The translations under genes were made by a program, and so were the position numbers. 64,000 nt of DNA from an uncultured delta proteobacterium (lineage in GTDB: Bacteria > Myxococcota > UBA727 > VGSZ01), in assembly GCA_963775425.1 (NCBI GenBank), contig CAVZJB010000011.1, positions 352,001-416,000 on the forward strand. The letters run 5' to 3'. Under the pieces are notes generated by a model. That model was not told the origin of the DNA and did no database searches. It saw nothing but the letters and a program-made list of their open reading frames with translations. Shown here piece after piece: positions 1 to 5,942 of the stretch (positions are counted from its first letter, which is position 1; each line of letters opens with the position of its first letter).

Positions 1-1239
1 GCGCCCGGGGAGAACGACCTTGGCGTCGGGGCGAACGACGGCGCCGTCCGGGGGATCGAGGATGGCGGCGTCGGTGCCCAGCGCCGGCGTCGCGGCGGCG
101 GTTGCGGAGCGGGCCGGGTCGGCGAAGCGCACCTTCTCGTTGACGGTGCTCGACGTCGTCCAGCGGCTCGCCGACGTCGGCGCCGGCGTCGGCCGCCGCG
201 TCGCGGGCGTCGCGGACGGCCGGGGCGCGGGCTTCGCGGACGGCCGGGGCGCGGGCGTCGCGGACGGCCGGGGCGTGAGCGGCAGGCGCTCGGGGACCGG
301 GATGGCGTCGAGCGAACGGGTGCCGGCCGGACGGGCGCCGCCTTCCCCGAAGCGCTCCCCGCCGAGCAAGAGCTCGCCGAGCGTCATCAGCTCATCGAGG
401 AATTGGTCCACGGTCTCCCAACGGTCCTCGGGCCGCTTGGAGAGCAGGCGCCGCACCATGTCCTCGATCTCTTCGGGGACGTCGTTCGTCATGCCGACGT
501 CGGCGAAGGTGGGGAGGGGCTCCTGGATGTGCGCGAGCAGCACCGCCGCCATGGTCTCGCCACCGAACGGGAGCTGCCCGGTCAACAGCTCGAACCAGAT
601 GGCTCCCATGGCGTAGAGGTCCGAGCGGGGATCGTCGGCGCGCGACACCACGCGCTCGGGCGCGATGTAGCTCGGCGTGCCCGGGATGGCGTTCACCTGC
701 GTGAGCTGTTCGGAGGAATCGAGGGTGCGCGCGAGCCCGAAGTCGAGCAGGCGCACGTCGTCGGTGGTCCAGCGCCCGCCGACGAGCATGACGTTCTCGG
801 GCTTGAGGTCGCGGTGCACGATCTGCGAGGCGTGCGCGATCGACAGCGCGCGGGCGATGCCGAGGAACACCGGGATGGTGTCCTTCCACGGCACCGGTGT
901 GTTCGGGCGCAGCGCTTCGCGGAGGTTCTCGCCCTCGATGTTCTCCATGGCGATGAAGAGCGAGCCGCCGTCGACCTCGCCGAAGTCGAAGATGGTGACG
1001 ATGTTGCGATGGGGGATGCGGCTGAGCGCCTGCGCTTCCTGGATGAAGCGGCGGCGCGAGCCGGCGTCCGCAGCCGGACCGGGCAGCATGATCTTGAGCG
1101 CGACCTTGCGCTCGAGCGGCTCTTGCATGGCCAGGAAGACCGCGCCCATGCCGCCCCGGCGCAGCTCCTCGATCACGCGGAAGCGGCCCGCGACCTTGCG
1201 GCCGATCCACTGCGCCGGATCGAGGGGGTCGCCGGTCAC
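1..1239 (-). CDS. Ser/Thr protein kinase (Hanks type), 3' end runs off the window
   Basis: Read manually (not in ORF track): GTG at 1239 overlapping the upstream stop (GTGA). MTGDPLDPAQWIGRKVAGRFRVIEELRRGGMGAVF...VALKIM, VHRDLKPEN, LLDFGLAR, GTPSYIAPE, SDLYAMG. Pro/Ala-rich C-terminal region. Confidence 0.93.
   Translation of the reverse strand, partial: MTGDPLDPAQWIGRKVAGRFRVIEELRRGGMGAVFLAMQEPLERKVALKIMLPGPAADAGSRRRFIQEAQALSRIPHRNIVTIFDFGEVDGGSLFIAMENIEGENLREALRPNTPVPWKDTIPVFLGIARALSIAHASQIVHRDLKPENVMLVGGRWTTDDVRLLDFGLARTLDSSEQLTQVNAIPGTPSYIAPERVVSRADDPRSDLYAMGAIWFELLTGQLPFGGETMAAVLLAHIQEPLPTFADVGMTNDVPEEIEDMVRRLLSKRPEDRWETVDQFLDELMTLGELLLGGERFGEGGARPAGTRSLDAIPVPERLPLTPRPSATPAPRPSAKPAPRPSATPATRRPTPAPTSASRWTTSSTVNEKVRFADPARSATAAATPALGTDAAILDPPDGAVVRPDAKVVLPGR
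203..274. repeat. 24-bp tandem repeat x3 inside the kinase C-terminal linker
   Basis: gcgggc(g/t)tcgcggacggccggggc repeated three times; encodes PRPSA(T/K)PA-like units on the minus strand. Confidence 0.8.
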
Positions 1240-1541
1240 AGCGCGTTCCCCGTCTCGAAGACGCGGCCGAGGAGGACGCCGACGCGCGTCGCCTCGTCGG
1301 GCCGCGCGTCGTGCGGCGTGGTGTAGTCGAGGCGCACCTGAACGCGTCCGGTGGCGACGACGACGATGACGCGGTGCTTGGTGTCCATCTCTTCGAAGGT
1401 GGCGAGCCCGAAGGATTCGGTCTTCAACGGAACGCCCGCGTCATCGAACGCGTCGATGAGCGCGTCCGTCAGGGCGCCGGGACGAATGTCGCAGCGCCAC
1501 GCCAATCCGGTCCGACAGCCGTGATCCTTCTCGAGACGCAC
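1236..1541 (-). CDS. Small hypothetical protein (101 aa)
   Basis: Fills the gap between the V4R gene and the kinase, stop overlaps the kinase start, globular-looking composition. Confidence 0.7.
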   Translation of the reverse strand: MRLEKDHGCRTGLAWRCDIRPGALTDALIDAFDDAGVPLKTESFGLATFEEMDTKHRVIVVVATGRVQVRLDYTTPHDARPDEATRVGVLLGRVFETGNAL

Positions 1542-1553
1542 GCGCCCCCCGGC

Positions 1554-4523: not shown

Positions 4524-5304
4524 TGTCACGGTCCTCGGGTCGAAGAAGCTGGAGCCGTCCCTCGAGCTCGGCGGCGAGCTGGTCGAAGGTGGCTGCGACG
4601 ACGGGCGGGCGCCGGCCGAGGAGCCCCACGGGGACGCCCGCGGCGCTGGCCTCGAGAAACGCAGCGTCGCGCGGAATGGTGGTCTGCATGGCGAGCTCGC
4701 CGAGCTGCGTCCACAGCTCGTCGGCCACCGACAGCGAGGCGGACACGCGCATCTGCAGCATGACGAGCACGAGCCCGGTGAGCTCGACCTTCACGCCTTC
4801 GTCGCGGATGGCGTTGATGACTTCGAGGAGCTGCGACAGCGAGCGCAACGCGATGGGCTCCGCCTGCACAGGCGAGAGCACGTGGCCCGACGCCCGAATG
4901 GCGCCGAGCGTGATCCCTTGAAAGCCGCTCGGCGTGTCGAAGAGCACGACGTCGAAGCGCCCCATCGCTTCATCGATGAGCCGCGTGAGCACGCGTCCAT
5001 CGGCGAGGAAGGCGCCGAAGCCCGGCGTGTCCTGCGGCGCCACCTGTCCGACGGGCAGGAGCGACAGCTCCGCGATGCGCGTGCTCGCCAGGGTCTCCGC
5101 GAGCGCGCGCCGCCCGGAGGCGTACTCGGCGAGGCCCGCGGCGCCGGCGAGCTTCTTCGAGAGGGACAGGCCGATGGCACCCTGCGGATCGGTGTCGACG
5201 ATGAGCGTGCGCCAGCGACGCTTGGCGAGCGCGAAGCCGAGGTTCAACGTCACCGTCGTCTTGCCGACGCCGCCCTTCTGGCTCGCCACGGTGACGACTC
5301 GCAT
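4498..5304 (-). CDS. ParA/MinD-family ATPase
   Basis: MRVVTVASQKGGVGKTT deviant Walker A, IVDTDPQG, FDTPS; ATG 5304 overlaps the upstream TGA. Confidence 0.93.
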   Translation of the reverse strand: MRVVTVASQKGGVGKTTVTLNLGFALAKRRWRTLIVDTDPQGAIGLSLSKKLAGAAGLAEYASGRRALAETLASTRIAELSLLPVGQVAPQDTPGFGAFLADGRVLTRLIDEAMGRFDVVLFDTPSGFQGITLGAIRASGHVLSPVQAEPIALRSLSQLLEVINAIRDEGVKVELTGLVLVMLQMRVSASLSVADELWTQLGELAMQTTIPRDAAFLEASAAGVPVGLLGRRPPVVAATFDQLAAELEGRLQLLRPEDRDNAPIPLVD

Positions 5305-5942
5305 CAGTGATCCTCCGGACGGAGCCGCGTCTTCAGCCGCTCGATGTTGTGTTGCACGCGCCTGTCGGTGGGCTTGAGGCGCGCGCACGCCGCGAAGGAC
5401 TCCATGGCGCGCGGGAAGTCGTGGCGGAGATACGCCTGCGTCCCTGCGCGAAAGAGCTCCTCGTAGGCTTGCTGGCTGTCGTCGTCGAGAGGCGACGAAT
5501 CCGCGGGGCCCGCAGGGACGGGCGCGGGCGGCATGCTCATCCGCGACACCGTGTCGTGGCTCGCGGGCACGGCGGCCGGCCGCCCGAGGTGCACGACGCG
5601 CTCGAGCCGCGCCGCTTCGATGGCCGCGCCGGCGGCGGGGTCGACGGCGGCGTCGTCGAGGCCGGCGTCGCGCTTCACCGACTTCTGCGGCACCGCGTCC
5701 GCGCTCAGCGCGCGCAGGTGCGCCGACAGCGTGGCGACGTTTTGCAGGAGCGACCACGCCTCGTCGCCGCGCGCGCCGGGCACCTCGGCGTGCCACAGCG
5801 AACCGCCGTGGACGACGACGCTGCCGAGCTCGAACGGGCCGTACGCGAGCTCGAGGGCCACCGTCTCTCCACGACGTTTCAAGTGCGTCACGAGGTGTTG
5901 CAGTGTGATCTGCGTCAAAACGGAATCAACGTACGGGTACAC
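5304..5942 (-). CDS. DUF4388/PATAN-like domain plus C-terminal TPR protein
   Basis: LTQITLQHLVTHLKRRGETVALEL...GSVVVHGGSLWHAEVPGARGDEAW resembles PATAN/DUF4388; ELFRAGTQAYLRHDFPRAMESFAACARLKPTD is TPR-like. Start uncertain (5942 or 6008). Confidence 0.65.
   Translation of the reverse strand: MYPYVDSVLTQITLQHLVTHLKRRGETVALELAYGPFELGSVVVHGGSLWHAEVPGARGDEAWSLLQNVATLSAHLRALSADAVPQKSVKRDAGLDDAAVDPAAGAAIEAARLERVVHLGRPAAVPASHDTVSRMSMPPAPVPAGPADSSPLDDDSQQAYEELFRAGTQAYLRHDFPRAMESFAACARLKPTDRRVQHNIERLKTRLRPEDH

Follow-up and report, generated by a model that had tools for sequence, protein, structure and literature searches.

Roadblock proteins, from MglB to Ragulator, act as platforms that bind and regulate small GTPases. 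The window analyzed here, 64,000 nucleotides (G000:C11:352001-416000) of an 8.26-Mb genome in 18 contigs with about 72% G+C from an uncultured delta proteobacterium, carries at its left end seven co-oriented minus-strand open reading frames (ORFs), g1-g7, each with coding-type G+C at third codon positions (GC3) and by codon position. They encode an adaptor protein (g1), a ParA/Soj-like ATPase (g2), two Roadblock-fold proteins (g3 and g4), a tandem V4R protein (g5), a conserved small protein (g6) and a Hanks-type Ser/Thr kinase (g7). The gene set is real, conserved and experimentally unstudied, and appears to be a signaling module whose core and most original feature is a predicted complex of g4 with the V4R protein. 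Our leading, still tentative reading is that this V4R-Roadblock sensor platform is coupled, in the Myxococcota and a few other groups, to a ParA ATPase where MglB-type platforms have MglA.

MglA-MglB of Myxococcus xanthus and Thermus thermophilus is like this locus in that a Roadblock/LC7-fold protein is encoded with an NTPase in a signaling context, and in structural comparisons g3 matches MglB best and g4 has it among its best matches. PATAN-domain proteins are recurrent neighbors of both; PMC4316618, which records them beside mglA/mglB, also counts 328 'orphan' MglB homologs, none of them characterized. The locus differs in that no MglA-family GTPase lies in or near the module, which leaves it outside the 'coupled' class as that paper words it, and in that its NTPase is of ParA type. 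It also has two distinct Roadblock proteins where MglB forms a homodimer, g4 has an extra C-terminal domain with a predicted V4R-docking role, and Robl_LC7 stays below threshold on both g3 and g4.

At the level of fold only, the module is similar to Ragulator-Rag and TRAPP of eukaryotes and Asgard archaea, which have Roadblock/longin-fold subunits. LAMTOR subunits are the top Foldseek matches of g4, and TRAPP also contains Bet3/TRAPPC3, which has the V4R fold (PMC10933270). In the module, however, the predicted V4R contact is made by the helical domain of g4 and not by its Roadblock domain, the NTPase belongs to the SIMIBI ATPases rather than to the Rab or Rag GTPases, and a membrane-trafficking context is lacking. 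Actinobacterial conservons (CvnA-D) are likewise multi-gene signaling cassettes, with the Roadblock protein CvnB and the small helical CvnC beside an NTPase (PMC4316618), whereas the module has neither a histidine kinase nor an MglA-group GTPase. Conservons have no V4R protein, and DUF742, a conservon trait, is not reported by Pfam on any operon protein and gave no match at E up to 10 among 50 g4-family members. With ParABS and PomXYZ the module has in common a Soj-like deviant Walker A ATPase and, in g3, a candidate partner with an N-terminal peptide and a disordered linker, but it has no ParB, PomX or PomY homolog, and g2 falls under all NCBIfam equivalog cut-offs and has a family-specific acidic C-terminal tail. 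Like the V4R sensors (XylR/DmpR/PoxR family, MJ1460), g5 matches Pfam V4R twice and has the family-typical Cys-containing site, but it has no AAA+ or DNA-binding output domain and is predicted to bind a Roadblock protein. V4R units as a rule also come in pairs in pre-PcyA/BBAG bilin-associated clusters of deltaproteobacteria and cyanobacteria, where they accompany Fe-S and bilin-binding proteins (PMC10151467); in g5 the two units are fused in one chain, and Fe-S, globin or bilin-reductase neighbors are absent.

Full-text literature searches turned up no account of this gene set or of any V4R-Roadblock pair in bacteria. The preliminary description of this DNA proposed the whole operon as undescribed, which no longer holds in full: the central idea of ParA in the place of MglA has a recent precedent in print. 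One sentence and Figure 2B, panel 16, of an October 2026 preprint (bioRxiv 10.64898/2026.10.19.760177) have PriB1-clade ParA domains displacing MglA in MglA-MglB-centered systems, and ParA is read there as a GTPase-like switch. The passages concerned draw no link to V4R, the small protein, TPR adaptors or the kinase. The PriB1 logo printed there has Asn in Walker A where g2 has Ser, but the PriB1-type DxDPQ is present in g2.

The pair at the center of the module is formed by g4 (2873-3457, minus strand, 194 aa) and g5 (1554-2813, minus strand, 419 aa). The tandem V4R call on g5 is borne out by Pfam, as PF02830 scores 42.3 bits against a cut-off of 31 over two stretches, and the g5 profile matches the V4R structure MJ1460 at E 4.3e-4. 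H28, C29, H31, E159, C162 and C170 are invariant in 47 aligned sequences. Prediction of the V4R-g4 complex gave interaction prediction scores from aligned errors (ipSAE) of 0.94, 0.94 and 0.91, and three controls all gave 0.00. The runs had at least 87% of their contacts in common, with a partner predicted local distance difference test score (pLDDT) of at least 78. Of 157 solved complexes 116 attain this mark, as do 2 of 215 mismatched pairs, a calibration that applies only roughly here, where our own alignments were supplied.

On the side of g4, the predicted interface lies entirely in the C-terminal helical domain (residues 143-162 and 185-189), including the invariant Y143, D146, R153 and L187, and the Roadblock domain stays free. 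On the side of V4R it consists of residues 35-45, 121-129, 255-276 and 388-391. Conserved residues make up 9 of the 20 interface positions of g4, against 17 conserved columns among 194 overall (Fisher 2.9e-6), and 12 of the 26 interface positions of V4R (Fisher 5.5e-4); these enrichments are not independent of the predictor, which read the same alignments. The model thus predicts, short of a demonstration, that the V4R protein binds the C-terminal domain of g4. A sensor role for V4R, as proposed in the preliminary description, would fit the predicted docking (ipSAE 0.94).

Roadblock domains had been assigned to both g3 and g4, and Pfam is silent on them. Robl_LC7 (PF03259) gave no match on either protein at E up to 0.1, nor in a scan of the genome at E up to 1, and NCBIfam gave no Roadblock match on the two. 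Weak Robl_LC7 matches appear in 2 of 50 g4-family and 4 of 32 g3-family members. It is the predicted folds that confirm the assignment. The AlphaFold2 (AF2) model of g4, built with a 50-relative alignment, has a pLDDT of 92.2 and consists of an N-terminal Roadblock/LC7-type domain of order α-β-β-α-β-β-β-α (3083-3457, minus strand, residues 1-125), followed by four helices. Foldseek places LAMTOR subunits, Asgard Roadblock proteins and MglB at target-normalized template-modeling scores (TMt) of 0.70-0.82. In VIA comparisons, which cover residues 2-128, g4 reaches Z 15.9 to Asgard Roadblock3 (9jue) and Z 15.0 to MglB 6hjm, the latter with a root-mean-square deviation (rmsd) of 2.5 over 124 aligned residues. 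The g4 profile also matches MglB in the PDB at E 7.9e-4.

The C-terminal four-helix domain of g4 (2876-3085, minus strand), the predicted V4R-docking part, contains an invariant RYAPDP motif. It has 175 matches in 1.84 billion representative proteins and is C-terminal in the full-length proteins listed. Homologs are named 'hypothetical' at NCBI, and some are named 'Roadblock/LC7/MglB family' at JGI; the protein atlas gave no usable match for it, and 16 long proteins that carry it showed no informative N-terminal domain by Pfam. Two variants of the g4 family were seen in passing. One thermophilic Synechococcus metagenome-assembled genome (MAG) has tandem duplicate g4 genes before the V4R gene (L063:8130-8738 and L063:9270-9878). 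Divergent g4 relatives in a single family of the phylum match in two separate parts of one open frame (G108:C1:6640324-6641223; also in G096, G112, G120, G128 and G131), with about 100 extra codons between the Roadblock part and the C-terminal domain and at most 3 copies per genome.

g3 (3465-4529, minus strand, 354 aa) consists of a conserved N-terminal peptide with the consensus …RSxFLPDxxxLxxLLxRAGV, a long Pro-rich linker of variable length, and a C-terminal Roadblock/LC7-fold domain in its last 136 residues (3468-3875, minus strand). Modeled with 32 relatives, this domain has a pLDDT of 91.8, a predicted template-modeling score (pTM) of 0.85 and the same α-β-β-α-β-β-β-α order. Foldseek ranks 1-7 are all M. 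xanthus MglB (E 5.6e-6, query-normalized score TMq 0.64-0.67), and 9 of the 32 g3-family members match Pfam LAMTOR5. By these models, both g3 and g4 carry the Roadblock fold even though the Pfam family test fails.

The preliminary description suggested a neighborhood search seeded with the V4R protein, and such a search finds the gene set conserved as a unit. A pattern scan for the V4R protein gave 60 loci, which together with the window's own make 61, and hidden Markov models (HMMs) were iterated over all their ORFs. Most of the loci are Myxococcota MAGs; the others come from Acidobacteriota, Methylococcaceae, thermophilic cyanobacteria, a Thermus/Deinococcus-group genome and Bacteroidota. 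g4 stands directly before the V4R gene in 57 of the 61, and all six genes g1-g6 are present in 27. As the gene order recurs in these 27 loci, the arrangement is not due to chance. Gene content upstream of V4R was counted in the 50 loci with at least 4 kb of upstream DNA: g1, ParA, g3 and g4 are found in 28, g4 alone in 14, g1 and g4 in 3, g1, g3 and g4 in 1 (L056), ParA, g3 and g4 in 1, and none of them in 3. ParA is always accompanied by g3 (29/29 loci). Apparent gene fusions in L026, L033, L049 and L054 were rejected as probable frame artefacts of long high-GC ORFs or as probable frameshifts.

g6 (1236-1541, minus strand, 101 aa) follows the V4R gene in 37 of the 56 loci with at least 1.5 kb downstream. 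Its invariant residues are C9, W15, R66, R70, R80 and A84. There is no Pfam, NCBIfam or PDB match to it, with nothing below E 0.24 in the PDB profile search, and its leads in the protein atlas, to unnamed Myxococcota and Cyanobacteriota clusters, all stay below threshold (0.80-0.82). Cyanobacterial and Thermus/Deinococcus-group loci have an ORF of 85-98 aa after the V4R gene with motifs in common with g6. The similarity is without statistical support (hmmsearch reaches E 0.011 at best over 10 sequences, and hhalign gives P 0.036), and judged by position, size and common motifs the cyanobacterial ORFs are only probable g6 homologs.

The smallest version of the module, with only g4, V4R and the small ORF, occurs in thermophilic cyanobacteria (Thermosynechococcus and Synechococcus sp. 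records); the same core without ParA is present in the Deinococcota group, Methylococcaceae and other loci. Within its phylum the distribution of the g4 family is patchy: of 401 genomes sampled, 21 have a member, and 12 of these belong to a single family of 20. Among 41 close relatives, 4 showed the V4R protein. The patchy spread over phyla suggests horizontal spread. Four loci have a V4R protein without g4. In three of them an ORF of 74-84 aa adjoins the V4R gene (L064:9723-9953, L076:9745-9969 and L074:3566-3820) and resembles by eye the second half of the g4 C-terminal domain, with insignificant HMM values (E at least 2.7); among the small ORFs beside V4R in the four loci, no significant match to that domain was found (best E 0.54).

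g2 (4498-5304, minus strand, 268 aa) matches AAA_31 (E 1.6e-26) and CbiA (E 9e-18) in Pfam, in agreement with the ParA/MinD call. An intact deviant Walker A motif (SQKGGVGKTT), a Walker A' motif with DxD (VDTDPQG) and a Walker B motif (VLFDTP) identify it as a deviant Walker A ATPase. It scores 86.8 bits against a cut-off of 180 for ParA_partition and 62.3 against 212.9 for minD_bact, and it passes none of the NCBIfam equivalog cut-offs. The best PDB matches are ParA/Soj proteins (E 1e-23 to 1e-20), with MinD at 1e-11. The acidic C-terminal tail is conserved and specific to the family, reading …DNAPIPLVD here and …DDGPIPL… in orthologs; tail and Walker A were compared over 34 ParA orthologs. 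Pfam and NCBIfam scans revealed no ParB, MinC or MinE family on any operon protein.

An MglA-type GTPase just past the window edge or in most related loci would have undone the case for a rewired module, and none was found. With the genome's own MglA as the phmmer --max query, the 61 loci, with 7,208 ORFs in all, yielded no MglA-like GTPase. The best match is not significant (E 0.014); it comes from an Acanthopleuribacteraceae MAG, where an ORF of 170 aa lies some 8 kb downstream of the module (L031:10691-11200). The same query in tblastn finds three genes in the genome itself, one each on contigs C4, C3 and C5, whereas C11 has no copy: the MglA of a canonical mglB-mglA pair (G000:C4:260234-261408, locus L077) and two further MglA-family genes (G000:C3:427265-427864 and G000:C5:291430-291990) whose products share 48% and 45% identity with MglA. 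In Pfam scans, 67 neighboring ORFs on the same strand and 95 others likewise gave no small-GTPase family. As Pfam Ras (PF00071) missed even the genome's own mglA at E up to 0.01, that absence is weak evidence, and for this reason MglA was used directly as the query.

g1 (5304-6008, minus strand) encodes an adaptor protein of 234 aa if the start is at 6008; 5957, 5942 and 5918 are the other start candidates. The preliminary description called it a PATAN-TPR protein. No Pfam match was obtained for g1 at E up to 0.1, NCBIfam gave none either, and none of the 29 matches of a DUF4388 (PF14332) scan of the genome at E up to 1 falls on it. Compared by hhalign with 19 DUF4388 domains of its own genome, the N-terminus (5781-5915, minus strand, residues ~32-76) aligns with a probability of 79% and P 1.6e-5, over 44 columns only and with a 5-sequence query; five unrelated alignments used as controls gave P 0.044-0.76. 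The majority of g1 proteins, 'type A', have no DUF4388 similarity (P 0.47), and the family HMM finds g1 orthologs at the same position. The PATAN half of the call is thus partly supported, as a degenerate PATAN-like stretch and not as a full DUF4388. A protein in the g1 position of L030 has a full DUF4388 (E 6.8e-32) with the same C-terminal TPR, and L018 has a REC-DUF4388-TPR protein downstream of the module (DUF4388 E 1.2e-16). We also noted a 233-aa protein after the g4, V4R and small-ORF trio of a Thermus/Deinococcus-group locus (L075:3685-4383), with a sub-threshold DUF4388 match (E 6.4e-4) and weak hhalign support (P 0.005).

A Pro-rich linker leads from the PATAN-like fragment of g1 to a module-specific C-terminal TPR motif (5313-5477, minus strand, residues ~178-232), and Pfam TPR_2, TPR_1 or TPR_19 matches this motif in 8 of 19 related proteins scanned. 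An HMM of the motif built from other loci, searched against 63,302 six-frame ORFs of the genome, finds g1 at E 2.4e-23 and the C-terminus of g7 at 6.3e-7, with the next match at 6.1e-5; by BLASTP, g7 matches g1 at E 0.004. In relatives the motif is combined with PATAN (L030), REC plus PATAN (L018), Ser/Thr kinases (L046, L055) and TPR/helical modules. The accessory proteins are thus variable signaling heads on a constant motif, which probably serves for docking. g1-type proteins also stand beside the core where ParA is missing, with g4 only in L030, L049 and L066 and with g3 and g4 in L056; L036, which has too little upstream DNA to enter the upstream count, has the same pattern. As TPR-motif proteins occur beside the core without ParA, the motif probably docks on the core and not on ParA. 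For the same reason, binding of the motif to the C-terminal tail of ParA was dropped as the leading reading.

g7 (1-1239, minus strand) continues past the left edge of the window and has 542 aa in all; its last 129 codons and stop were read from the genome (G000:C11:351611-352000) and reach 389 bases beyond the edge. It is a Ser/Thr kinase by Pfam (Pkinase 153.4 bits against a cut-off of 31.7, E 1e-44), with VHRDLKPEN (HRD) and DFGLA (DFG) in the translation. The proposal that the kinase is the output of the module does not hold for the module in general, in that a separate downstream kinase gene is not conserved: it is found only here and in the closest relative, and in two other loci a kinase is fused to the g1-type protein. 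The kinase is a lineage-specific addition and not a conserved member. HMM iteration from g7 drifted into the g1 family through the common TPR motif, and its counts were discarded. In the closest relative, a further Ser/Thr kinase gene lies after the g7 ortholog (L017:13246-14706), and its product has a PqqD-like domain at the C-terminus (E 2.1e-13); the window's own locus has no such gene.

A possible mechanism can be proposed from these features. The C-terminal four-helix domain of g4 would clamp the V4R protein, a ligand- or metal-binding sensor fold, and the Roadblock domain of g4 would thereby be free to pair with that of g3. On the resulting Roadblock dimer the ParA/Soj-type g2 would replace MglA as the nucleotide switch, with g3 serving as the ParA partner through its N-terminal peptide, long flexible linker and Roadblock domain. 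Variable signaling heads, here the PATAN-like g1 and the kinase g7, would be recruited to the core by the common C-terminal TPR motif. The ligand state of V4R might then set the ATP cycle of ParA, and hence where and when the assembly and the kinase act. The g3-g4 heterodimer, the regulation of ParA by the Roadblock pair, the ligand and any spatial role are inferred.

The proposed coupling of ParA to the V4R-Roadblock platform in place of MglA builds on gene conservation, the folds, the lack of a nearby GTPase and the common TPR motif, which are shown, together with the predicted V4R-g4 contact. The close spacing of the genes, the strict pairing of ParA with g3, the intact Walker A and the tail of g2, the N-terminal peptide of g3 and the precedent in the preprint also speak for it. 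Several observations weigh against it. The core lacks ParA and g3 in 14 of the 50 loci, so the Roadblock platform does not need ParA, and L056 has g1, g3 and g4 without it. The Walker A motif is intact in most ParA orthologs, but its lysine is replaced by Arg or Ser in 3 of 34 (GGGGRTT in L027, GGVGRTT in L046 and GGSGSTT in L055), so hydrolysis may not always matter; these replacements point to changed or missing ATP hydrolysis in some module versions. The three MglA-family GTPases encoded elsewhere in the genome could serve the Roadblock platform in trans. g3 and g4, the proposed heterodimer, have little similarity at the profile level (22% probability and P 9.6e-4 in hhalign), the separate kinase gene is confined to two genomes, and the complex score comes from our own alignments. 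The claim that the module is rewired around ParA therefore stands in part: ParA goes strictly with g3, but the core is not ParA-centered, as g4, V4R and the small ORF occur without it.

ParA/MinD ATPases place chemoreceptor arrays, carboxysomes and the PomXYZ complex in the cell. It is less likely than the coupling in place of MglA, though a serious alternative, that ParA is a positioning accessory of this kind: the core of Roadblock, V4R and small protein would use a GTPase encoded elsewhere or no NTPase at all, and in the Myxococcota ParA, g3 and g1 would have been added to place or partition the complex, with g3 as a cargo adaptor that stimulates ParA. The 14 loci whose core lacks ParA, and 3 more that have g1-type proteins, are what such an accessory would lead one to expect; mglA and two paralogs are available on other contigs, and g2 is nearest to the Soj/ParA partition ATPases. 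The architecture of g3, with N-terminal peptide, disordered linker and folded domain, is presumably that of a ParA partner protein. Yet the module contains no ParB, parS-type partner or known cargo gene, and the ParA gene lies inside the operon, translationally coupled to g1 and g3. The preprint, in addition, takes comparable contexts as displacement of MglA (bioRxiv 10.64898/2026.10.19.760177).

Other SIMIBI NTPases act in insertion or maturation, and the module might handle a cofactor or metal center, with V4R binding a metal or a tetrapyrrole-type cofactor through its His and Cys residues, ParA as the insertion or maturation NTPase and the Roadblock proteins as scaffolds. We consider this unlikely. 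The six invariant residues of V4R would suit such a role, V4R pairs stand beside Fe-S and bilin-binding proteins elsewhere (PMC10151467), and the preprint reports that ParA-like proteins were recruited to metal-cluster biogenesis (bioRxiv 10.64898/2026.10.19.760177). However, V4R sensor domains also hold a structural zinc by a Cys/His site (PMC10933270), no conserved Fe-S, heme oxygenase, bilin reductase or target apoenzyme gene lies beside the module, the accessory heads are signaling domains (PATAN, REC, Ser/Thr kinase), and g2 is Soj-like and not Mrp/NBP35-like. Least credible is an anti-phage or conflict system of the recently proposed ParA-based kind, with V4R as the sensor of an infection-derived small molecule and with ParA or the kinase as the effector. 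The patchy distribution (21/401 genomes, with scattered loci in other phyla), the preprint's link of ParA with V4R and longin-like domains in predicted immune systems (bioRxiv 10.64898/2026.10.19.760177) and the resemblance of g7 to PADLOC defense kinases, through its generic kinase domain only, agree with it. Against it, PADLOC-DB 2.0 has no family for g1, g3, g4, g5 or g6, and ParA matches it over a P-loop stretch of 36 residues only. Scans of 157 related-locus and 5 own-genome ORFs reported no nuclease, TIR or other effector family, and the genes on either side of the module are of varied housekeeping kinds. The proteins are also well conserved, with V4R sequences 50-60% identical among Myxococcota loci, unlike arms-race components, and g2 has the DxDPQ of the preprint's housekeeping-type clade.

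If ParA does take the place of the GTPase, the Roadblock platform is not bound to one NTPase class, and the module would be a clean natural case in which to study the reading of a nucleotide state by Roadblock platforms. The predicted V4R-Roadblock contact, backed by conservation, suggests directly how a polarity-type switch could receive a small-molecule signal. The pairing of TRAPP's two folds in one module also bears on the origin of such assemblies. A bolder and rather doubtful extension is that the V4R-Roadblock pair is an ancient bacterial platform, from cyanobacteria to Myxococcota, made of these two folds (Bet3 and longin/Roadblock) and wired in the Myxococcota to the SIMIBI ATPase ParA instead of a Ras-like GTPase. 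Were this true, Roadblock dimers would be general regulators of both P-loop switch classes with a small-molecule sensor built in, and the fold partnership would be older than the trafficking machinery of archaea and eukaryotes, or of separate origin. The full modules are mostly from uncultured genomes; the minimal form is present in Thermosynechococcus and Synechococcus sp. records, and bench tests of the core would be possible if those strains are cultured.

The operon is compact, as the preliminary description stated when it gave overlaps or gaps of at most 60 bp between the seven co-oriented genes. g1 and g2 overlap by 1 base and g2 and g3 by 26-32 bases, and the gaps are 7 bases between g3 and g4, 59 between g4 and g5 (the largest), 12 between g5 and g6 and 0 between g6 and g7. 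Promoter and terminator scans gave no usable result. Immediately beyond g7 lies a convergent plus-strand gene (G000:C11:349568-351592), and upstream of g1 lies a divergent SRPBCC gene (5993-6511, plus strand; Polyketide_cyc2 E 4.8e-10). The convergent and divergent neighbors, neither of them a GTPase gene, make the seven genes a bounded unit with nothing hidden past the edge. A second SRPBCC/Polyketide_cyc2 gene is near the module in another locus (L020:5593-6090); as the sole two cases among the ORFs scanned, they probably stand beside the module by chance.

Further into the window, positions 9001-10000 reach a G+C of up to 0.796 and contain long overlapping Pro/Arg/Ala-rich ORFs on both strands, such as 7448-10012 (minus strand, 854 aa), and gene calls there need care. 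On the other side, about 7 kb outside the window edge and a few genes past g7, the same strand encodes a secretion or pilus ATPase of the T2SSE family (PilB/PilT-type; L009:7362-8864, at G000:C11:343362-344864; E 5.5e-46).

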